64,000 nucleotides of DNA. Origin: Candidatus Rubrimentiphilum sp. Its GTDB lineage: Bacteria; Vulcanimicrobiota; Vulcanimicrobiia; Vulcanimicrobiales; Vulcanimicrobiaceae. The DNA lies in NCBI GenBank assembly GCA_035710515.1, contig DASTDE010000004.1, positions 403,434 to 467,433 of the forward strand, in the 5' to 3' direction. Shown here one piece after another: positions 1 through 9,252 of the stretch; within the stretch, counting starts at the first letter, position 1, and each line of letters starts with the position of its first letter. Position numbers and translations under genes: made by a program. The notes under the pieces are model-generated. The model ran no database searches. It saw only the letters and a list, made by a program, of their open reading frames with translations, and was not told where the DNA came from.

Positions 1-23
1 ACAGGCCAATGTCAAATGAGCGT

Positions 24-662
24 CTAGGCATTGAGCGCCATGAACCCGTCGCGCGCGCTCTCCCATTGTTCGGGCGCAACCGCACGCTCGGCATAGAATG
101 CCGCCGTAAAGGACCTGGCAATCTTGTCGAACTCCGGCGCAGCTGCCGGAGCTCCTCGCGCCACCGCCCGCCGGCATTCGTTCACGGTTCGGCTGGGATC
201 GGGCCAAATGACTCCCATGCGTTCCAGTTTGAGCAGCGCGGCCCAAAAGATGAGCGCGATCGCGGCGCGATAATCACCGCGTAACGCGGCTAAACAACTG
301 CGCTCGTAGAGCGATTCGAAATCGGGAGTATCGGCGAGCGGTTGCGACCGGCCGGCGCGCTGCGCGTCGCGCACGGCTCCGGCCATCAGCCTGGCGCCGA
401 CGATAAGGATAATTACCACAAGCGCAATCACGAGGAGATATCCGAGAGCGACGCCGGTCTGTCTGCCCACTTGCACGTGCGAAAAGAGCACGTCGGACAA
501 GCGGCTCCATTGGTCGCGCACCCACGTCCAAAATATCTCCCAGGCGGTGCGATGCGTTGTCGGAATCGCGACGCGAAATCGATCTTCCAAAAGAATCTTG
601 CGTGCGAGGACGCTGGGATCGATCGGCGGCAGCCGGGGAACCAAAACCGGCGCCGCGCTCAT
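24..662 (-). CDS. hypothetical membrane-anchored protein, DUF4129-like
   Basis: 212-aa ORF with one central TM helix (GYLLVIALVVIILIVGARL). The helical C-terminal part (YERSCLAALRGDYRAAIALIFWAALLKLE) resembles DUF4129 proteins. The ATG overlaps the upstream gene stop in an ATGA junction (659-662). The family call is from motif memory only. Confidence 0.5.
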   Translation of the reverse strand: MSAAPVLVPRLPPIDPSVLARKILLEDRFRVAIPTTHRTAWEIFWTWVRDQWSRLSDVLFSHVQVGRQTGVALGYLLVIALVVIILIVGARLMAGAVRDAQRAGRSQPLADTPDFESLYERSCLAALRGDYRAAIALIFWAALLKLERMGVIWPDPSRTVNECRRAVARGAPAAAPEFDKIARSFTAAFYAERAVAPEQWESARDGFMALNA

Positions 663-1615
663 GGAGATCGGGGTTCGAGCTGCGCCAATTCTTCCTGAAT
701 GTCCATTCCTTCGCGCCGCACGCGCACGTCAAAATAGTATACTGCCGCCAGCAGCGTAAGCAGCGAGATATGCACGAAGGTCACCAGACCATTTGCAGCC
801 GCCGCCAACAGTGGACTGTGCACGAGAAAGTAGGCGGCCAGCGTCACGGCTAGTGCGAGCATCGAGAGGCCCAAATAGATCGCGCCGATCGCCAAGCTCG
901 TTACCACCGCTCGCCAGAATTCGCGACGATTGAAGAGCCGGGAGAATGCGCGCCCAATAGCCTCGGCAAAACCCAATCCTTCCAAGACCACCGAGAAGAG
1001 GGCGCAGGCGATCGTGAGCTGAGCGACCGCTAAGGACACGAGCCACACGATAATGAACAGCAGCGTAAGCACGCCGAACGCGATACCGAAACCGACTCCC
1101 GCGCGCAGGGAGAAAATCGTCAGCAAGATCAGGACGAAATACCCGATGAACCCGACTATAACGAATGCCGCAAAGATGACGACGCTTAGGAAAAGCGTGC
1201 CTAGCATCGGACCCCATCGTCGAAAAACGGCCGCATAACACTGGCGCCAATCGGGATACGATCCTTCGTAAACGCGCGCCAGAGCCACGCCAATGGCCAC
1301 TGAGGAGAACGGCAACAAGATGATCGAAACCAGGGCCGCCAACCAGATCCATCCCGGAATTTGGTCGTTTGTGATCTGCGGGACCTTGGGATTGCGTCCC
1401 GGGTGATTCGCTTGCGCGATGACCGCACCCATCTGTTGGTATGCCGCAATGCTGCTGCCGGACTGAAAATACTGAACGACGGTTAATGGCAATACAATAA
1501 CGATCGTAATGAGTGCGATCGGCACGAAGTAGCGGACGTAAAGCGTCACGGCGCGATCGAAGATTTCTCCGATGCCCAATGGCCGCAGCGGCAGCGGGTC
1601 ACCCGCCATGCTCAT
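659..1615 (-). CDS. multi-pass integral membrane protein (function unknown)
   Basis: The ORF track gives 659..1690. I prefer the ATG at 1615 (MSMAGDPLPLRPLGIGEIFDRAV...). It is preceded by GAAGGG and avoids overlap with the divergent MOSC gene that starts at 1667. About 7 hydrophobic helices are visible. Confidence 0.55.
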   Translation of the reverse strand: MSMAGDPLPLRPLGIGEIFDRAVTLYVRYFVPIALITIVIVLPLTVVQYFQSGSSIAAYQQMGAVIAQANHPGRNPKVPQITNDQIPGWIWLAALVSIILLPFSSVAIGVALARVYEGSYPDWRQCYAAVFRRWGPMLGTLFLSVVIFAAFVIVGFIGYFVLILLTIFSLRAGVGFGIAFGVLTLLFIIVWLVSLAVAQLTIACALFSVVLEGLGFAEAIGRAFSRLFNRREFWRAVVTSLAIGAIYLGLSMLALAVTLAAYFLVHSPLLAAAANGLVTFVHISLLTLLAAVYYFDVRVRREGMDIQEELAQLEPRSP

Positions 1616-1666
1616 GGGCCGCCCTTCTTGAGGGTTTGAACGCGGTCCTATGGTAATGAAAGCACG

Positions 1667-2302
1667 ATGCAGCTGCTCGGACACGTTCACGCCATTTACC
1701 GCTATCCCGTCAAGAGTTTGGCCGGTGAATCATTGAATGAGGTGACGATCGACGCGGACGGGATCCCCGGCGACCGCGCCGCGGCGCTCTTCGTTACAGC
1801 GGGTCACGCGCGAACCGGCAAGACGTACCGCGGCAAAGAACACAATCTGCTGCACTTGACGAGCGATCCGCGCGAAGCGGCGGAGTTGGCGAAAGCCGGC
1901 GGCGTTACGGTCGAGCTTCGCCGCGGCGACCACTTTTTCGACGCCGCACCGGTTTCATTGCTCTTCGATCGCTGGGTGGAGGAAGTCTCCGCCGCCCTCG
2001 GCCGTCCCCTCGACTTCAGGCGCTGGCGGCCGAATCTCTTTGCTCACGCCGCTGAAGATTTTCAGTTCAGCGAAAGCGATCTTAACGGCGCGCTCATCGA
2101 AGCCGGAACAGCAATCTTGCGCGTGTCCGAATCGGATAAACGCTGCGTAACGACCACGTACGACGTAGAAACCGGCGAAGCCGATCCCGAAGTTTTACGC
2201 TATGTCGCGCAGGAGCGCGACAGCGTGCTCGGCGTTTACTGCGACGTGGAGCTGGCCGGCGTCGTCCGCGCGGGCGACGCTTTACGCTTGCGCGCGCGCT
2301 GA
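1667..2302 (+). CDS. MOSC domain-containing protein
   Basis: 211 aa. The N-terminus (HVHAIYRYPVKSLAGESL) and the later RWRPNL and KRCVTTTYD motifs are typical of MOSC / MOSC_N beta-barrel proteins. Confidence 0.75.
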   Translation: MQLLGHVHAIYRYPVKSLAGESLNEVTIDADGIPGDRAAALFVTAGHARTGKTYRGKEHNLLHLTSDPREAAELAKAGGVTVELRRGDHFFDAAPVSLLFDRWVEEVSAALGRPLDFRRWRPNLFAHAAEDFQFSESDLNGALIEAGTAILRVSESDKRCVTTTYDVETGEADPEVLRYVAQERDSVLGVYCDVELAGVVRAGDALRLRAR

Positions 2303-2601
2303 ACGTCGCGAACTACCGACTCAAGCGCGTCGATGTAATCCAAAAAACGCTCGCGGCCTGCGCGCGTTATGCGCACGACCGTCTGCGGGCGGCCCTTCCC
2401 CGTGATGCGCCGCATGTCGACGATGCCCATCTCGGCGAGCGCATGTAAATGACGGTTCAGATTGCCGTCGGTCAAGTCGCACGCTTCCTGCAGCTGTGTG
2501 AACGAGATGCCTTCCGGGTGCGCGATCAGCGCGCTGCAGATCGCCAGCCTTCCCCGCTCGTGAAAGACTCGGTCGAGCGCGCTCAAAGCGAATTGCGTCA
2601 T
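2236..2601 (-). CDS. winged-helix transcriptional regulator (HTH_34/ArsR-like)
   Basis: 121 aa. The motifs RGRLAICSALIAHPEGISFTQLQEACDLTDGNLNRHLHALAEMGIV and GKGRPQTVVRITRAGRERF indicate a wHTH fold. A 4-nt overlap links it to the upstream membrane protein gene. Confidence 0.75.
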   Translation of the reverse strand: MTQFALSALDRVFHERGRLAICSALIAHPEGISFTQLQEACDLTDGNLNRHLHALAEMGIVDMRRITGKGRPQTVVRITRAGRERFLDYIDALESVVRDVQRARKRKASPARTTPASSTSQ

Positions 2602-3224
2602 ACCGCTCTCCCTTCACGATCGCGCATGACCAGGATACCGATCGCGATCTGTCCCGCGCCGAACCCGATCGCGAGCGTGGCCGGAGCGAGCGCCAGATCG
2701 TGCGGCACAAACAGCAAACCGGCACCGGCAGCCAAGAACGCCACTGAGATCGGTAAGACGGCGCGCGGGAGCATCGTGTACGATGCCAGCAATCCAACGC
2801 CGTAGCATCCGTACCACACTGCGGGTAGGAGCGCGAAGAGGTCGGCACGCAGCAATGCGAAGGAAAGCGCGGCTCCCAGAATAAGCGCCGGCAAGATCGC
2901 AAAGCCGACGGTCGCGGTTTGCCACCGCTCGCGTGCGGTCGCATCGTTGACGTACCAGTGCGCGATCGCGCCATAGTTCACGATCATGGCGGCGGCGCAG
3001 CACGCGAACCAAATTGCGAAATACAGATGTCCGTCGTGCGACGTGCGCACGGCCGGAACGAGCAGCCACTGAACGACGCCGGACGCCAGTGCGAACGCGC
3101 CCGAAACCGCCGCGGCCAAACCGGAGTAGCCTTTGAAGCGCTGCACGTGCCCGAGGCGTTCGCGCACCTCGGCGATATCCGCCAACGCCCGTTCTAAGTC
3201 GGTCATGTCCTTACTTTGTAGCAC
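2598..3224 (-). CDS. integral membrane protein co-transcribed with the wHTH regulator
   Basis: 208-aa ORF (GTG 3224; alternative ATG 3206). It has an amphipathic N-terminus followed by about 5 TM helices. No family was recognised. Confidence 0.6.
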   Translation of the reverse strand: MLQSKDMTDLERALADIAEVRERLGHVQRFKGYSGLAAAVSGAFALASGVVQWLLVPAVRTSHDGHLYFAIWFACCAAAMIVNYGAIAHWYVNDATARERWQTATVGFAILPALILGAALSFALLRADLFALLPAVWYGCYGVGLLASYTMLPRAVLPISVAFLAAGAGLLFVPHDLALAPATLAIGFGAGQIAIGILVMRDREGRAV

Positions 3225-3281
3225 AAAGCGTGCGTTCTCGGCAACTTTTTTGACTTCAGGCGCCAGAAATACTCCATGAAA

Positions 3282-3327
3282 AAACGGCCGGCGACAGGCC
3301 GCCCGCAGAGCCTACCGTCGGCCGTTT
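3282..3327 (-). terminator. intrinsic terminator downstream of the 30-aa peptide gene
   Basis: On the minus strand AAACGGCCGaCG ... CGcCGGCCGTTT forms a 9+2 bp GC-rich stem with one mismatch, followed directly by TTTTTT. It lies 16 nt after the peptide stop codon. Confidence 0.6.
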
Positions 3328-3342
3328 CTTATGAGATTGGAA

Positions 3343-3435
3343 CTAGGTCAGATCGATGGGATCGCAACAGGCGACGCTGCCGCCACCCGAGCTACCGAAC
3401 AATGCTGTGAGAACGATGATCACACCGTCAACCAT
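3343..3435 (-). CDS. small hydrophobic peptide, 30 aa: MVDGVIIVLTALFGSSGGGSVACCDPIDLT
   Basis: Below the ORF-track size cutoff. ATG at 3435, with AAGGAG (3442-3447) 6 nt upstream; TAG at 3343-3345, followed by a hairpin plus T-run. The C-terminal ACCDPIDLT matches ACCFPIDLS in the divergent neighbour, using different synonymous codons. Confidence 0.6.
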   Translation of the reverse strand: MVDGVIIVLTALFGSSGGGSVACCDPIDLT

Positions 3436-3624
3436 ATGGATCTCCTTTAAAGAGTGAGTAATGTGCCGCAAGTGTAGTCCCCTTTAATTGGCCTTGTATA
3501 TGATCGGATCAGATTGTTAGCTTTTCTCCTCAGGCGTTAGACGTAGGGCTACCCCGCAGGGCTTTACCCCGACCCGGCTAAGGTTTCATGGCACTTCTCT
3601 TTTTGATGATAAGGAGTTTTCGCT

Positions 3625-4029
3625 GTGAAAAAAATGCCGGCTACAATAGATCGCGGTACCCTTTTGAAGGGTGGTGGAACGGCGGCACTCACGGCGCTGC
3701 TAATCGGGGCGCTCGAAGGGCGCGCAGAAGCATGCTGCTTTCCGATCGACCTCAGTTACGGCGACAATCTCAGCAGCGTTGAGAAAATGGCTGAAAATAC
3801 AGCCGCAAGGAAAAAGGGCGCGACGGAATTCAGTGCCGTCAGGATTTGGGCGCCGGCACCAGGCAACGGTGGTGGCGGCACTCCGCGGCCTACCGCTCCG
3901 TGGACCTTACTCTTTACCGCGGCAAACGCTTCGGTGGCGGGGTTCGACGAAAATCAGAATCACCACGGGAATTCGAAGGCTCTCGTGCCCAAGCCGTTGG
4001 GCGGAACGATTTACGTTTTCGTCAAGTAA
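3625..4029 (+). CDS. hypothetical secreted protein with an N-proximal CCxPIDL motif
   Basis: 134 aa. GTG start with AAGGAG 8 nt upstream. It has a signal-like N-terminus (MKKMPATIDRGTLLKGGGTAALTALLIGALEGRAEA|CC) and a Gly/Pro-rich middle. No family was recognised. Confidence 0.65.
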   Translation: MKKMPATIDRGTLLKGGGTAALTALLIGALEGRAEACCFPIDLSYGDNLSSVEKMAENTAARKKGATEFSAVRIWAPAPGNGGGGTPRPTAPWTLLFTAANASVAGFDENQNHHGNSKALVPKPLGGTIYVFVK

Positions 4030-4031
4030 CG

Positions 4032-6740
4032 CTAGGTAACGCTCACCTCGGATCGCTCGCCGAACCTTTGCGACAGCGCTTGAGCAGTCGTCTTTAGATT
4101 ACCGCTCAAGACTAGCGTTACGCTTTCGTCCAGCTCGCGTCCGTAGCGCTCTCGCAGCTCGCCATCGACTCGATCGCGATCGAGTCCGGGCATTTCGCGG
4201 AGCGAGTGAACGCGGCGCATCGCCAAGCTCAGCGCGAAGGCATCCTTGGCGCCGTCGACGTCCTTTTGGCAAAGGGCAACCGCGGCGCAGGCTTCCAAAG
4301 AGTTCACGATCAATTCGAGCGCATCGAGACGTAATGCGATGTGCAAGCTCTCGCCCGCCAAGGATCGAGCTTCCGAACAATCGTTTCGATTCTCCAGAAC
4401 AGCCATAGCTGCCAAGATTTCGGCAATGCCGAATTCGTTTTTTATTTTGCGCTTGGTGGCGAGAGCCGTTGTGAAACACTTCTTCGCTTGCTCCCAATCG
4501 CCGCGTTTATACGCGAGAGTTCCGAGCGTCGCTATGACCGTCGCGCAAACATCCTCGTCGCCCAAGCGCTCCGCTCGCGTGCGGCATTCCGAGAGCAGCA
4601 ACTCCGCGGCGTCGAGATCGCCGCGCTGGAGTTTGATCGCCGCGCAGTTCGTGCTCGAGCTGACCGCGGCGCGTTCTTGTCCGGCCTCCGTGCAGCGCAC
4701 TGCGATATCGCTATACAAGCGCTCGGCCCCTGAATAGTTACCCCGCCGGTTCTCGTTGACGGCCAGAGCGTGCAGCGCTTCGAGAACGCCCGGCTGGTCC
4801 TTGGCTTCATGGTAGATCGTGAGAGAGCGCTTGGCCAGCGAATCCGCGGCGTCGTATGCACCTTCGATGCTTGCAAACGTCGCCGCGCGCCGCAGAATGC
4901 CGGCGAGAATCGTATCTTCCGGCCCGGCAGCGTCGATGTAACGCTGCAGCCACCTGCGCCCTTCCTTGACGGTCCGGCGGATATACCAGTAACGGAACAT
5001 GCCGAGGAGCATCTGCCCGAGTTCCGGGCCCGTGTTTTCAAAGCCGTAAACGAGCGCGGCGCGAACGTTTGCCGCGTCGCCGTCGACGGCGTCGAGCCAA
5101 TTGCCGAGCGCTTCATGCAGCAGTGGGCCGCTTCCCTTTGTCGCGAGCGCGGCAAATAGTTCAAAATGCCTTGCACGGGCCGCGGCCAGCACCGCCGCCT
5201 CGCTTTGCTCGCCGGCATATTCGCGAATGACCTCCAGCATACGATACCGCGTTCCGGCATCGGCGCGCTGCACCGCCAAGAACGATTTGTCCACAAGTTC
5301 CTCGAGGATGTCGAGCACCGCGGTTCCTCGCGTTGATGAAGCTACAGTCTCGCACGCCTCGAGTGAGAAGCCGCCGACAAAGACCGAGAGCTCGCCGAGC
5401 AGTTTTCGTTCCGCATCGTCCAGCAGTTCGTAGCTCCAAGCAATCGTCTCACGCAACGTTTTGTGGCGATCGTCCTCCGCCGCCGACGTTCGGAGCAGGG
5501 CGAGTTGATCTCCCAAGCGCTCCCGGATTTGACGCAGCGATAACGTCGAAAGCCGCGCGGCCGCGAGTTCGATGGCGAGCGGGATACCTTGCAGCGCGCG
5601 CGAGATCGCGGCGAAGTCTTCATAGTCCCCCGTGCTCGGCACAAAAGCGTGCGCGATCGCCTGTGCGCGCTCTATGAAGAGCCGCTCGGCGTCGGCTTCA
5701 TCGAACGGACCCAAACGGTACACGCGCTCGCCGCGGACGTGCAGCGACTCCTGCGTGCTCGTGACGATGCTCACATCCTTCGCCCGATCGAGAATCAATT
5801 TTACCGTCTTTGCGATCGCGGGCAACAAGTGTTCGGCGTTGTCGAGCACGAGCAAGAGGCGCTGGGCTGCTAGCTGCCGCAGGAGCGTCGCCTCGATCGG
5901 TTCGCCTGCCGCCTCACCGATGCCGAGCGCCGATGCAATCGTTTGCGCGATGAGTTTTGGATCCGAGGTGGATGCTAGCGCAACAAACCAGACGCCGTCA
6001 TTGAAGTCGTCGAGCAGTTCCGCGCCGAGCTGCAGCGCCAGGCGCGTCTTTCCAATGCCGCCGGGACCACACAACGTCACCAGCCGGTGCTGCGCCACCA
6101 GTTCGCGCAATTCACGCAGCTCGGATTCGCGTCCAACGAAACTCGAAAGTTCCAACGGCAGGTTGTTGGGACGCGCGTCGAGGGTTCGCAGCGCCGGAAA
6201 ATCTTTTTGCAGATCCGGCGCAGTGAGCTGAAAGATCGTTTCGGGTTCGGCGAGATCGCGCAGGCGGTGCGTTCCCAAACTGCGGCACTCGAGATCCGGC
6301 GGCAACTCGCCGCGCACAAGCGTTGCGGTAGCCGCCGAGAGCAGTATCTGTCCGCCGTGACCGGCCGACATTAAGCGTGCAACGCGGTTGAGCGCCGGGC
6401 CGAAGTAATCGTCGTCGGACTCCAGCGCGCTGCCGGTGTGCAATCCGATCCGCACGCGCAGCTCGCCCACCGCGCTGTCCCATCGCTCTTCCGCAAGCTT
6501 GCGCTGCACGTCGACCGCCGCCATCGCGGCGCGTTCCGGTGATGCGAAGACGCAGCAGAACGCATCGCCGACGCGTTTAAAAACGCTTCCGCTCTGGGCT
6601 TCGATCGTACCGGACAGGATCGCATCGTGCGCCGCGAGCGCTCCGGCCATGGCTTCGGGCGCGCGATCCCAGCGAGTTGTGCTGCCTTCGATGTCGGTAA
6701 AAAGAAAAGTCAGCACTCCGGTTTGGGGCAGCGCGTGCAC
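4032..6740 (-). CDS. class III adenylate/guanylate cyclase domain - STAND (P-loop) NTPase - TPR protein
   Basis: 902 aa. The cyclase domain shows LTFLFTDIEGST, KRVGDAF, RIGLHTG and YFGPALNRVARL. The P-loop is LCGPGGIGKTRLAL, with LLVLDNAEH as Walker B. The C-terminal third is TPR-like helical repeats. Confidence 0.85.
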   Translation of the reverse strand: MHALPQTGVLTFLFTDIEGSTTRWDRAPEAMAGALAAHDAILSGTIEAQSGSVFKRVGDAFCCVFASPERAAMAAVDVQRKLAEERWDSAVGELRVRIGLHTGSALESDDDYFGPALNRVARLMSAGHGGQILLSAATATLVRGELPPDLECRSLGTHRLRDLAEPETIFQLTAPDLQKDFPALRTLDARPNNLPLELSSFVGRESELRELRELVAQHRLVTLCGPGGIGKTRLALQLGAELLDDFNDGVWFVALASTSDPKLIAQTIASALGIGEAAGEPIEATLLRQLAAQRLLLVLDNAEHLLPAIAKTVKLILDRAKDVSIVTSTQESLHVRGERVYRLGPFDEADAERLFIERAQAIAHAFVPSTGDYEDFAAISRALQGIPLAIELAAARLSTLSLRQIRERLGDQLALLRTSAAEDDRHKTLRETIAWSYELLDDAERKLLGELSVFVGGFSLEACETVASSTRGTAVLDILEELVDKSFLAVQRADAGTRYRMLEVIREYAGEQSEAAVLAAARARHFELFAALATKGSGPLLHEALGNWLDAVDGDAANVRAALVYGFENTGPELGQMLLGMFRYWYIRRTVKEGRRWLQRYIDAAGPEDTILAGILRRAATFASIEGAYDAADSLAKRSLTIYHEAKDQPGVLEALHALAVNENRRGNYSGAERLYSDIAVRCTEAGQERAAVSSSTNCAAIKLQRGDLDAAELLLSECRTRAERLGDEDVCATVIATLGTLAYKRGDWEQAKKCFTTALATKRKIKNEFGIAEILAAMAVLENRNDCSEARSLAGESLHIALRLDALELIVNSLEACAAVALCQKDVDGAKDAFALSLAMRRVHSLREMPGLDRDRVDGELRERYGRELDESVTLVLSGNLKTTAQALSQRFGERSEVSVT

Positions 6741-6755
6741 ACCCCAAACTTCCGG

Positions 6756-7364
6756 CTAGAGCGTGCGGCGGCCTTCGATGGCTTTGGCCAGCGTCACCTC
6801 ATCCGCATAGTCGAGATCGCCGCCGATGGGCAATCCGTAGGCTAGCCTGGTGACCGATGCAACCAATGGAGTAAGCAAGCGCGAGATGTAGAGTGCGGTG
6901 GCTTCGCCTTCGGCATTCGGATTCGTCGCCAAAATGATCTCGCGCGGCTCTTCTTTTCCGATGCGGTCGACGAGCTCTTTGACGTGCAGTTGCGCGGGAC
7001 CGACGCCGTCCATCGGCGAGATCAGCCCGCCCAGCACGTGATAATGCCCTTTATAGACGCCGGTGCGTTCGAGCGCGTAGATGTCTTTGGCTTCGGCGAC
7101 CACGCAGATCATTTTGGAGTCGCGCCGGTCGTCGCTGCAGATCGGGCACGGGTCTTCCTCCGTGATTGAAAAGCACGTCGAACAGAGTTGAACGCGATCC
7201 TTGACCGACAAGATCGCCTCAGCCAGCGATTGCGCTTCGTTACGCGGACGGTTGAGCAAATAGAACACCAGCCGCGCAGCGGTCTTCGGACCGATCGTCG
7301 GAAGTTTGCTGAATTCGTTGATCAGGGCCTGGACCGGGCCGGCGATGCTTCCAGGTGAGGGCAC
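6756..7364 (-). CDS. recR: recombination protein RecR
   Basis: The C4 zinc finger is CSTCFSITEEDPCPIC, and the Toprim region is ICVVAEAKDIYALERTG...ATNPNAEGEATALYI. The track ORF runs to 7550 but that extension overlaps ybaB. GTG 7364 gives a normal 202-aa RecR (MPSPGSIAGPVQALINEFSKLPTIGPKTA). Confidence 0.9.
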   Translation of the reverse strand: MPSPGSIAGPVQALINEFSKLPTIGPKTAARLVFYLLNRPRNEAQSLAEAILSVKDRVQLCSTCFSITEEDPCPICSDDRRDSKMICVVAEAKDIYALERTGVYKGHYHVLGGLISPMDGVGPAQLHVKELVDRIGKEEPREIILATNPNAEGEATALYISRLLTPLVASVTRLAYGLPIGGDLDYADEVTLAKAIEGRRTL

Positions 7365-7369
7365 GTACT

Positions 7370-7678
7370 CTAGGAGAGTCCGGGAATGTGCAGGCCGCCG
7401 GTGACGCGGCTCATGCGCGCTTGCGCCGTTTCGTCGGCTTTCTTCAGCGCATCGTTGACGGCGACAACGATCAAATCTTCGAGCGTCTCCGCATCGGCCG
7501 GATCGATTGCTTCGGGTGCGATCTTGACCGCCTTGACGCGATGATCGCACGTCATCTCGACCTTGACCGCCTCGCCAGCTGCCGTCCCGGTGACGACGGT
7601 GCTCGCCAGCTCCTCCTGCGCCTTGGTCATCTCTTGCTGCATCTTGCGCATCTGCGCCATTAAGTTGGCTTGGTTCAC
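7370..7678 (-). CDS. ybaB: nucleoid-associated protein YbaB/EbfC
   Basis: 102 aa, with MAQMRKMQQEMTKAQEEL...GEAVKVEMTCDHRVKAVKI typical of the family. It sits in the classical dnaX-ybaB-recR position. A GTGA overlap joins it to the dnaX stop. Confidence 0.9.
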   Translation of the reverse strand: MNQANLMAQMRKMQQEMTKAQEELASTVVTGTAAGEAVKVEMTCDHRVKAVKIAPEAIDPADAETLEDLIVVAVNDALKKADETAQARMSRVTGGLHIPGLS

Positions 7679-9252
7679 GTCATTCTTTCATTTATATAGG
7701 AGAGGAGTTCGTCGGGATCGTCCGCCTGCGGCACCGGCGGCGCATTCTTTCCGGCGCCTGCCTCGACTTTGAAGCGCGCGCGCAACGGCGTGCCGAGCAC
7801 TTCCGCGATCGCGTCTTCGATCATCTTGACGTTGTCCTTGAGCGTCTCCGCCAGCACGGCGTTCGGCAGCGCGATCACCAGCGCGTTCCCTTCAATTGAA
7901 TCGGGCTGGGCGCGCGAAAGTTGCGTCCGCAACGACTGCCGCTCGCCTTCGATGCGCGTACGGATCGACTGCCACGCCGATCTCACTTTTTGAATCGTCA
8001 CGGGCCCGTTCGAAGCCGCGGGTTTGGAGGCGGGCGCCGGTTTCGCTTGCACTGCTTTTGGTTCGGCCGGTTTCGCTTCGGGTTTGGACTCGGCCGGTTT
8101 TTGCTCGCGCGTGGCCGGACGTTCCTCGAGCGCACTCACGCGCGCCGAGATCGCATCCAAAGTCGGATCTTCGGCGGCCAGCGCAAATCGCAGCAACGCC
8201 GTCTCCAACTCGAGCCGCGGATTGCCGCTCGACCGGACCGCCGACAGTGCCTCCGCCAACATTCGCAGCGCGCGCACGATCTGCGCCTGCGTCAGCTCGC
8301 GGCTTCGCTGCGTTGCCGCTTGCGCGTCGTCGGGCGCCAAGTCGCGCGTCAGCAGTTCGGGATCGATGCGCGCCACGATCAGGTTGCGAAATTCGGCGAT
8401 CAATCCGCGAATCAGCACCTGCATGTCGGTGCCGGCGTCGCTGGCGTCGTCGATCGTCTTGAGGATGCCCGAGGCGTCTTTCGCGATCGCCCGATCGAGC
8501 AGCGTGCGCGCGTAGCTGCGGCCGCTGGCGCCGAACGCCAGCTCGACCGTCGCGGCGGTAATCGAGCCATCCGCGAACGCGGCGGCCTGCTCGAGCATCG
8601 TCAGCGCGTCGCGCAATCCACCGTCGGCGCGATACGCGATGGCCGAGAGCGCTTCGTCGTCGATCGACATCTTCTCGGCGGCCGCGATCTCGCGCATGCG
8701 CTCGATCATCACCGGAATCGCAATCCGCCGGAATGCATACCGCTGGCAGCGCGACAGAATGGTTAAGGGCAGCTTCTCGGGCTCGGTGGTTGCCAAGATG
8801 AAGACCGCGTGCGGCGGCGGCTCCTCCAGCGTTTTTAAAAAAGCGTTGGCGCCCTCTTTGGTGAGCATGTGCGCCTCGTCGATGATGTAGACTTTCATGC
8901 GCATGGACGAGGGCGCGAACTTCACCGCGTCGCGCAACGCGCGAATTTCGTCGATCCCGCGATTGCTGGCGGCGTCGATCTCCAGGACGTCGAGCGCGGT
9001 GCCCGCCAAGATCGCGCGGCAGTTCTCGCAGGTGTTGTCGGGCGTCGCCGTCGGTCCGTGAATGCAGTCGATGCAGCGCGCCAGAATTTTGGCCGCCGAC
9101 GTCTTGCCCGATCCGCGCGGTCCGGAGAACAGGTAGGCGTGGGCCAGCTTCCCGCTCGCGATGGCGCTCGTCAGCGTCCGGACGACGGCTTCCTGACCGA
9201 CCAGTTCCGCGAAACTCTTCGGCCTGTAGTCGCGATAAAGGGACACCCCCAC
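7675..9252 (-). CDS. dnaX: DNA polymerase III subunit gamma/tau
   Basis: Starts YRPKSFAELVGQE. Walker A is GPRGSGKTS, the Zn module is CIDCIHG...CENC, Walker B is IIDEAHML, and sensor 1 is ILATTEP. The SRCQRY motif is present, and the C-terminal tau part is Pro/Ala/Lys-rich. Confidence 0.92.
   Translation of the reverse strand: MGVSLYRDYRPKSFAELVGQEAVVRTLTSAIASGKLAHAYLFSGPRGSGKTSAAKILARCIDCIHGPTATPDNTCENCRAILAGTALDVLEIDAASNRGIDEIRALRDAVKFAPSSMRMKVYIIDEAHMLTKEGANAFLKTLEEPPPHAVFILATTEPEKLPLTILSRCQRYAFRRIAIPVMIERMREIAAAEKMSIDDEALSAIAYRADGGLRDALTMLEQAAAFADGSITAATVELAFGASGRSYARTLLDRAIAKDASGILKTIDDASDAGTDMQVLIRGLIAEFRNLIVARIDPELLTRDLAPDDAQAATQRSRELTQAQIVRALRMLAEALSAVRSSGNPRLELETALLRFALAAEDPTLDAISARVSALEERPATREQKPAESKPEAKPAEPKAVQAKPAPASKPAASNGPVTIQKVRSAWQSIRTRIEGERQSLRTQLSRAQPDSIEGNALVIALPNAVLAETLKDNVKMIEDAIAEVLGTPLRARFKVEAGAGKNAPPVPQADDPDELLSYINERMT

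Follow-up and report, generated by a model that had tools for sequence, protein, structure and literature searches.

Small signal-like pro-peptides of bacteria, such as the enterococcal pheromone-inhibitor precursors (PrgQ/iCF10, iAD1) and the Phr and SHP pro-peptides, are encoded by open reading frames (ORFs) of 20-45 codons and consist of a signal-like segment followed by an active C-terminal end of 5-8 residues. The enterococcal inhibitors are similar to a peptide derived from a larger exported protein, with which they compete. MgrB, a protein of 47 amino acids, has one full-length transmembrane helix, a basic N-terminus and periplasmic cysteine, and is not a paralog of its neighbour. The Mer relay comprises the periplasmic protein MerP, which carries a CxxC motif in a ferredoxin-like fold, MerT/MerF with vicinal Cys-Cys in a transmembrane helix, and a metalloregulator. 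The gene described here has only 30 codons and is located in a stretch of 64,000 nucleotides of Candidatus Rubrimentiphilum sp. (contig DASTDE010000004.1, positions 403,434 to 467,433; termed the window), in which it diverges from the gene of a predicted exported protein of 134 amino acids. The comparative analysis indicates that this short gene is translated and selected, and that it is a paralog of the long gene's family reduced to the N-terminal module.

The short gene, encoding MVDGVIIVLTALFGSSGGGSVACCDPIDLT, was called without a name in one public protein set (P0023), the contig of which is 100% identical to window positions 1-8889. This was the only match of the peptide in a database search. 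A profile of the N-terminal modules was subsequently searched against 5.8 billion proteins and detected one further short protein, P0045, of 32 amino acids (MIDGTIIIVLTALVGASEPGGSVACCDPIDLT), so that the search for relatives of the short ORF, which had been proposed in a preliminary description of this DNA, revealed a second carrier. P0045 is encoded on the locus L024 at the same place and in the same orientation, divergent from a long gene and 5' of the gene of the membrane protein, with which it shares the strand. The long gene of L024 is P0017-like and its product is about 61-64% identical to that of the window. Each of the two carriers has one long gene, with CCF in the motif. The locus L011, a 98.9% strain variant of L024, ends 19 nucleotides into the same short ORF. 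Scanning of viral contigs for a CCDPIDLT-stop coding pattern gave no matches.

Comparison of the short ORFs of the window and L024, a single pair with 30 aligned codons, gave a pS of 0.58, a pN of 0.13 and a dN/dS of 0.13 (Fisher p = 1e-4), with identities of 0.83, 0.90 and 0.53 at the first, second and third codon position. Both indels between the two ORFs comprise whole codons, and their stops, TAG and TAA, are found at the same codon. The ATG, the AAGGAG and the 6-nucleotide spacing between them were kept in L024 though the surrounding DNA is randomised: nucleotide identity was 0.76 in the ORF and 0.58 in the 5' flank, equal to that of shuffled sequence (0.55). Since the in-frame sequence 5' of the ATG is unrelated between the two carriers, this ATG is the start. 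The two carriers agree fully in the last 13 residues of the peptide, GGSVACCDPIDLT. Antisense frames running across the short gene are uninterrupted in the window and L024, yet less conserved than the sense frame, and the codon-position pattern also points to the latter. The low dN/dS, the in-frame indels, the retained start, Shine-Dalgarno sequence and stop, and the randomised 5' flank indicate a translated and selected gene. The sequence comparison therefore shows that the short ORF is a real, old and frequently lost micro-gene of 30-32 codons under purifying selection.

The preliminary description had reported both ORFs, both AAGGAG sites, the hairpin with its T6 and a motif common to the two products, and all of these were found at the positions compiled in Table 1. 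In all six reading frames of the 64 kb, the pattern CC-x-P-[ILV]-D-[ILV] was found just two times, each time at this locus, whereas 0.006 occurrences per window are expected and none was found in 300 simulated windows; for the full A-C-C-x-P-I-D-L-[ST], the expectation is 1e-5 per window. The shared motif is far beyond chance. A hidden Markov model (HMM) of the long family built without the short ORF matched it at HMM positions 19-44 with E = 0.008, which bears out the proposed homology of the two products in their hydrophobic segment and motif. The short peptide aligned without gaps over 27 amino acids with the long-family proteins P0036, L021b and P0025, and its ACCDPIDLT is identical over all nine residues to the corresponding part of ACCDPIDLTY in P0025. 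In alignments, the TAG of the short ORF falls on the Tyr codon (TAC/TAT) that comes next after PIDL[ST] in the long genes, so the short gene ends exactly where the long proteins carry a Tyr/Phe codon. The best protein matches of the short peptide were these paralogs elsewhere (P0036/L021b, P0025) and not the resident long protein.

At the DNA level, similarity between short and long genes is limited to about 23-38 nucleotides around the motif (16/23 identical to the resident long gene and 24/26 to L019a). This short match and its better agreement with paralogs of other genomes speak against a recent origin of the short gene by local inverted duplication of its resident neighbour, which was therefore rejected. 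Different codons are used for five of the seven motif residues in common, as the preliminary description had listed; there, this had been taken as a sign of selection on the peptide and not of a DNA repeat. Both the selection and the lack of a recent DNA repeat hold, but the argument itself was insufficient, because a dead fragment of a diverged paralog would show the same synonymous differences; it is the comparison of the window with P0045 on L024 that establishes selection.

The homology of the short gene to the long family stops exactly at the ORF ends, with none past the stop. The peptide shares the hydrophobic region, the Gly-rich spacer and A-C-C-D-P-I-D-L-T with P0025, P0036 and L015a. 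Like the long family, it carries C-C-x-P-I-D-L-[ST] 6-12 residues past the hydrophobic segment, with the stop in place of the following [YF] codon. The family N-region, I-D-R-[AG]-T-L-L-K with its invariant Arg, was not found in the short peptides, which begin with M-[VI]-D-G before the hydrophobic run, and the C-terminal beta domain of the family (residues ~45-134, with W93, G106-x-D-E-N and a terminal [IL]-[WY]-V-[YF]-V-K strand) is absent. Since the ORF stops after the motif and has no homology beyond it, the short gene can be regarded as a module-only paralog and a partial family member. By sequence it is homologous solely to the N-terminal module of the long proteins, which consists of a hydrophobic export or anchor segment, a Gly/Ser linker and CC-x-PIDL.

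The long protein has 22 homologs with 49-94% identity, all from Vulcanimicrobiota (formerly Eremiobacterota) of soil and peat metagenomes and some named Candidatus Rubrimentiphilum. When 1.84 billion representatives were searched exhaustively with a profile (E ≤ 0.001), 23 proteins were listed, of which two were already known, two were spurious (P0028 and P0038, large repeat-rich proteins that were rejected as family members) and 19 were more distant small proteins of 113-161 amino acids. The CC-x-PIDL motif, the loss of which from the orthologs would have counted against the preliminary description, is kept: A36, C37, C38, P40, I41, D42 and L43 were invariant in 23 orthologs. Over 40-44 family members, C37, C38, P40 and L43 were at least 90% conserved, and R10 was invariant in the long proteins. 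The more distant relatives mostly keep CC-x-PIDL-[ST]-[YF], and the farthest are without the Cys pair (e.g. DVPLNLTF). The long protein gave no match in Pfam, NCBIfam or the PDB, by sequence or by profile, and no literature on the family or the motif was found, in line with the earlier remark that the motif was not recognised from any described family. The long protein is the founding member of an undescribed family of small, presumably exported beta proteins restricted to Vulcanimicrobiota.

An earlier AlphaFold2 model of the long protein was poor (predicted local distance difference test, pLDDT, 52.8). With an alignment of 40 sequences a pLDDT of 65.6 was reached, with values of 72-90 in the C-terminal domain, and residues 41-46 (IDLSYG), which form the first predicted beta strand, lay in a block with a pLDDT of about 72. 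A Foldseek comparison of both models with the PDB revealed no significant match (best E ~1). The second model points with moderate confidence to a small beta domain. Loci of the window type have one long gene; two tandem paralogs were found in L015-L018, L019/L020 and L022/L023, and at least three in L021. The tandem copies are strongly diverged (L015, 5628-6393; L019, 538-1498; L021, 77-1133; L022, 881-1744). The long family is thus a fast-evolving, copy-number-variable set of predicted exported proteins at a fixed address.

The N-terminal 36 residues of the long protein (window 3625-3735) look like an export signal. The positive residues of its n-region are K2, K3, R10 and K15, whereas the short peptides contain no Lys or Arg in either carrier, as had been noted earlier for the N-region of the window peptide, and have net charges of about -3 (window) and -4 (L024). 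In the best 9-mer, the mean Kyte-Doolittle hydrophobicity was 3.2-3.4 for the short peptides and 2.0-2.5 for the long proteins. In the short peptide, the hydrophobic region VIIVLTALF is followed by S-V-A|CC; the corresponding site of the window long protein is A-E-A|CC. A signal-peptidase site directly before CC had been considered for both products, but this is not a feature of the family: the residue preceding CC is A in the long-protein orthologs and F, D, L, M, T, Y, Q or K in the paralogs. The positively charged n-region typical of Sec signals is missing from the short peptides. The consecutive Arg-Arg of Tat signals (S/T-R-R-x-F-L-K) was not found either, the long family having a single invariant Arg in D-R-[AG]-T-L-L-K; Tat-like traits of the long family are I-D-R-[AG]-T-L-L-K, a weakly hydrophobic G/A/T-rich core and, in several paralogs, basic residues past the core. 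A lipobox, [LVI]-[ASTVI]-[GAS]-C, is lacking in the long protein, where A-E-A-C has Glu at -2, and in the paralogs, where K-V-F-C, V-I-D-C, R-K-V-L-C and N-K-C were found. S-V-A-C of the short peptide is marginal as a lipobox and is without a basic n-region.

The short gene is part of a cassette of about 310 bp. Among relatives whose upstream sequence is available, L012 (long protein 94% identical) and L013 (89-90%) are the closest; their intergenic regions measure 110-118 bp. Only window positions 3201-3239 and 3552-3640 align with them, and the ~310 bp between are extra in the window. The cassette interrupts the conserved region of divergent promoters that lies between the long gene and the operon of the membrane protein and an ArsR-like regulator. 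A comparable indel separates L024 (about 311 nucleotides, 1732-2042) from L025 (54 nucleotides), whose neighbouring genes are 89% identical to those of L024 and which keeps cassette remnants on both sides of the deleted ORF. At L025 1704-1868, about 25 nucleotides of the upstream part of the cassette and about 13 nucleotides of a hairpin arm are left, as after an internal deletion; L025 and L024 come from the same metagenome sample. No motif-bearing short ORF was found in L001-L006, L008 or the multi-paralog loci. In the most divergent single-copy locus, L006, the intergenic region (1786-1948) is about 165 bp long as compared to ~90-120 bp, the extra sequence being unrelated to the cassette, and the long protein of this locus carries CCDPIDL, as do the short peptides. 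The preliminary description had asked whether short and long forms stay adjacent. This adjacency is not general: 13 other syntenic arrangements have the long gene(s) without a short ORF.

In a tree of about 94 amino acids of the membrane protein, which is crude and midpoint-rooted, the two carriers were placed on opposite sides of the root, and the nearest relative of each is without the short ORF. Between the window and L024, dS was 1.09 for the short gene and 1.22 for the adjacent membrane-protein gene, which argues that the cassette was not exchanged recently. An old gene that was lost many times would be the most economical history. An older transfer of the cassette between lineages, in place of repeated loss, could also have taken place. 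A mobile element was rejected, since no further copies of the cassette were found in the window or the loci and no flanking repeats in L024. In the window, a 20-nucleotide imperfect direct repeat (75% identity; 3248-3267 and 3522-3541) lies just inside both ends of the cassette; an equivalent was not found in L024, and the repeat may be due to chance.

The start codons of the two divergent ORFs are 189 nucleotides apart. The sequence AAGGAG occurs just six times on both strands of the whole window (128 kb), and two of the six are the ribosome-binding sites of these two genes. The hairpin 3' of the short gene begins about 12 nucleotides past the stop and has a folding energy of -33.1 kcal/mol (z = -3.4). 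In L024, a different, GC-rich hairpin without a T-run begins 13 nucleotides past the stop. A sigma-70-like promoter was not found for the short gene, though this consensus may not be that of the phylum, and no known RNA family was detected in 3000-4200 (Rfam, E ≤ 1).

The order of genes (DUF4129, membrane protein, MOSC, winged helix-turn-helix (wHTH) regulator, membrane protein, long gene(s), cyclase-STAND-TPR, recR, ybaB) was identical in every locus with enough flank recovered; in the window, dnaX also lies beyond the cyclase gene with recR and ybaB. The membrane protein on the same strand as the short gene has six hydrophobic segments by eye, the second of which contains Cys75-Cys76 (codons 2997-3002). 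This Cys-Cys (YFA[IV]WF[AST]CCAA[AS]) was invariant in 16/16 orthologs, and the Cys of GCYGVGL and the loop HWYVNDATARERW were invariant wherever the orthologs cover them. The only family match was a weak one to DUF6518. The orthologs begin with MTDLERAL, so that the true start is probably ATG 3206 rather than the listed GTG 3224. The regulator encoded in the same operon matched the NCBIfam ArsR/SmtB model below the cutoff. It is 92-98% identical across the compared loci where the long protein is only 54-94% identical. The perfect palindrome CTTTGTAGCACAAAG recurs with 0-2 substitutions in every locus with the intergenic region read and, judging by this recurrence, is likely to be the operator of the divergent promoter region bound by the wHTH protein.

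Two overlaps of convergent genes were also observed. The wHTH gene (-) and the MOSC-domain gene (+) overlap at their 3' ends by 67 nucleotides in the window (2236-2302) as well as in L013 (3032-3098) and L015 (4547-4613). The long gene and the convergent gene of a 902-amino-acid adenylate/guanylate-cyclase-STAND-TPR protein end at most 2 nucleotides apart in the window (4029-4032) and overlap by 8-11 nucleotides in other loci (L015, 6386-6393), which leaves no room for a terminator between them.

Table 1. Coordinates of the short gene, the long gene and associated features in the window.
Feature	Position	Strand	Remarks
Short gene, 30 codons + TAG	3343..3435	-	ATG 3435 to TAG 3343; N-terminal-module-only paralog of the neighbouring family
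Shine-Dalgarno AAGGAG of the short gene	3442..3447	-	6 nt 5' of ATG
Intrinsic-terminator-like hairpin + T6	3279..3333	-	Between the short gene and the membrane-protein gene
Cassette of ~310 bp (upstream region, Shine-Dalgarno, short ORF, hairpin)	3240..3551	-	Boundaries approximate; in the window and L024, missing in relatives
Long gene, 134 amino acids, begins MKKMPATIDRGTLLKGGGTAALTALLIGALEGRAEACCFPIDLSY	3625..4029	+	GTG start; predicted exported small beta protein
Shine-Dalgarno AAGGAG of the long gene	3611..3616	+	8 nt 5' of GTG
Codons of A36-C-C-F-P-I-D-L-S44	3730..3756	+	Shared motif in the long protein
Membrane-protein gene	2598..3224	-	Same strand as the short gene; listed start GTG 3224
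ArsR-like winged-helix regulator gene	2236..2601	-	Operon with the membrane-protein gene; Pfam HTH_34 63.5 bits, HTH_20 38.3 bits
Palindrome CTTTGTAGCACAAAG	3214..3228	.	Perfect; just 5' of the membrane-protein gene

The balance of the evidence tilts, by a small measure, towards a micro-gene that is a module-only paralog and whose exposed peptide engages the partner of the long protein. Of the explanations offered in the preliminary description, a secreted mimic of the protein's N-terminus or a membrane micro-protein paralog is the preferred class. Two to three or more tandem full-length copies of the long gene are kept by other lineages at this slot, which is prone to duplication, and the short gene is likely to descend from a second paralog here that was inverted and cut down to its N-terminal module. 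The very hydrophobic N-terminal segment would take the peptide into or across the cytoplasmic membrane. Given its higher hydrophobicity and the missing Arg-containing N-region, membrane insertion or Sec/YidC-type export would be expected and not the route of the long proteins. The acidic CCDPIDLT tail would then be exposed outside, either tethered or released after SVA|CC, where it may compete for, or modulate, the binding partner of the corresponding CC-x-PIDL end of the long protein. One candidate partner is the invariant Cys-Cys in the predicted transmembrane helix of the co-oriented membrane protein; alternatively, the peptide may mimic a strand and engage the edge of the long protein's own beta sheet. 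The presence of three Cys-Cys products around a metalloregulator-like repressor suggests a thiol, metal or redox relay, which would be under the control of the ArsR-like regulator.

Several observations weigh against this interpretation. Independent carriers number two, in addition to the 98.9% variant showing just the first 19 nucleotides, and the dN/dS derives from a single pair over 30 codons. The 13 syntenic arrangements without the short ORF indicate that it is dispensable. The peptide is without the invariant Arg and the Leu-Leu-Lys of the family and has no positive charge in its N-region, which is atypical for Sec or Tat targeting, and its hydrophobic run of 9-12 residues is too short for a classical transmembrane helix. 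Topology, cleavage and partner of the peptide are all features that we infer, and only adjacency and shared chemistry suggest a link to the Cys-Cys of the membrane protein. A bolder extension, to which we give little credence, is that CC-x-PIDL would define a new extracytoplasmic thiol module of Vulcanimicrobiota made up of exported beta proteins, the Cys-Cys membrane protein and the ArsR-like regulator and serving metal or redox handling or sorting, in which the 30-amino-acid gene product, as a paralog truncated to the interaction epitope, would be an N-terminus-only mimic that competes with or primes the hand-over from the exported proteins to the membrane protein or back.

The conserved end of the peptide may also be read as a signal that is released: a pro-peptide cut after Ser-Val-Ala would free CCDPIDLT, maybe with a vicinal disulfide or as a metal complex, and this octapeptide would be sensed by the membrane protein/wHTH pair or compete with the long N-terminus, much like the active ends of the Phr, SHP and enterococcal inhibitor peptides. 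The identity of the last 13 residues in both carriers despite a dS of about 1, the agreement of S-V-A with the -3/-1 rule and the location of the gene directly 5' of, and on the same strand as, the membrane protein and regulator would suit such a signal. However, the N-region has no positive residues, neither a peptide-receptor family (RRNPP, Agr) nor an exporter was found nearby, lineages that lack the peptide have kept the membrane protein/wHTH operon in full, and the N-terminal half, which a mere leader would not need, is conserved too. We consider a released signal unlikely, if still deserving attention. Slightly less credit is given to a cis-acting leader ORF, the translation of which would govern read-through of the hairpin into the membrane-protein/wHTH operon, the peptide having no function in trans. 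In both carriers a strong Shine-Dalgarno sequence and a stable hairpin 12-13 nucleotides past the stop are located 5' of this same-strand operon, and tandem Cys codons lie inside the ORF, as might be expected of a leader, whereas the amino acids are under purifying selection along the whole length and homologous to a protein module. Pairing of the 3' part of the ORF with the 5' arm of the hairpin (-14.4 in the window) was no stronger than in shuffled sequences (mean -16.6; shuffle p 0.09 for L024), so that the mutually exclusive terminator and antiterminator pairings of an attenuator were not found; the L024 hairpin is without a T-run, and 30 residues are probably too short for a secretion-monitor arrest peptide.

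The possibility that the ORF is a relic, i.e. the decaying 5' remainder of a second paralog that was lost, still open by chance, is very improbable. The closest relatives of both carriers are without the ORF, its stop aligns with the family Tyr codon as a nonsense mutation would, and the N-region containing the invariant Arg is missing. A relic would nevertheless hardly show a dN/dS of 0.13 with saturated synonymous sites, indels in frame, an ATG, Shine-Dalgarno spacing and stop position kept between lineages with randomised 5' flanks, and homology that stops exactly at the ORF ends, and the dS of 1.09 rules out a very recent transfer of the cassette between the window and L024. A strain-specific dead fragment, the first reading of the absence of the cassette from L012, L013, L001-L006 and L008, of the sole database match in the same strain and of the TAG at a Tyr codon, was discarded in view of P0045 and the same dN/dS. 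More doubtful still is a type I toxin-antitoxin-like cassette that encodes a small hydrophobic toxin. It would account for the patchwork of presence and absence and would fit about 30 amino acids with a hydrophobic N-terminus and a self-contained, patchily distributed cassette with strong Shine-Dalgarno sequence and terminator. Against it, the hydrophobic stretch has just 9-12 residues before an acidic tail that contains Cys, the homology to the N-terminus of an exported protein is clear, the window contains no further copy, L024 is without flanking repeats, Rfam gave no match, and the divergence agrees with a vertical history. The faintest chance is given to the precursor of a ribosomally synthesized and post-translationally modified peptide (RiPP) with a Cys-containing core modified by dedicated enzymes, which had been listed in the preliminary description. 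The conserved Cys-rich C-terminal segment of a short peptide would be in keeping with such a precursor, but the genes of about 3 kb on each side (DUF4129, membrane protein, MOSC, wHTH, membrane protein and cyclase-STAND) include no maturase, and no radical-SAM enzyme, YcaO, lanthipeptide synthetase or peptidase-ABC exporter was found by Pfam within ~3 kb upstream and 5.8 kb downstream or in the syntenic loci. In addition, the supposed leader is a hydrophobic export-like segment, and the same motif is part of the predicted first strand of a folded protein.

For bacterial micro-proteins of 30 codons, comparative support is rare, and particularly so in an uncultured phylum. What is new in the present case is a micro-protein from a partial paralog, with an unusually clear origin, in an uncharacterised cluster. 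Should the peptide indeed mimic the N-terminus of its neighbour, it would illustrate cleanly the rise of regulatory micro-proteins from partial gene duplicates. The natural presence/absence polymorphism across related genomes could be used for finding its function. The gene also draws attention to an undescribed lineage-restricted cluster of a Cys-Cys exported family, a Cys-Cys membrane protein and an ArsR-like regulator, the chemistry of which suggests metal or redox handling.

In comparison with known systems, the short ORF resembles the trpL/hisL attenuators in being followed by a hairpin and T-run 5' of a same-strand operon, but differs from them in that the peptide is conserved and homologous to a protein, no alternative RNA structure is supported and the second carrier is without a T-run. 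The clustering of a predicted exported Cys-pair protein, a Cys-Cys membrane protein and an ArsR-like regulator is reminiscent of the Mer relay; unlike the latter, the long family consists of small beta proteins with an N-terminal CC, no MerA is present, and none of the long, short and membrane proteins matched MerT, MerP (HMA), MerC, MerF or MerR in Pfam (E ≤ 0.01) or NCBIfam. With MgrB, the short peptide has in common one hydrophobic segment and a short Cys-containing tail predicted to be outside, as well as a gene with strong Shine-Dalgarno sequence and terminator beside a sensor/regulator pair, whereas there is no sequence relationship and the hydrophobic run has just 9-12 residues. Like the enterococcal inhibitor, Phr and SHP pro-peptides, it is composed of a hydrophobic segment and a conserved C-terminal end. 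Unlike those of the enterococcal inhibitors, this end resembles the mature N-terminus and first beta strand of the neighbour and not a lipoprotein signal peptide, and the locus, in another phylum, has no RRNPP-type receptor, no Eep/PptAB-type processing gene and no plasmid context, and the N-region carries no positive charge. By analogy, the short gene may work most like the small signal-like pro-peptides or the small membrane regulators, while being a member of neither.

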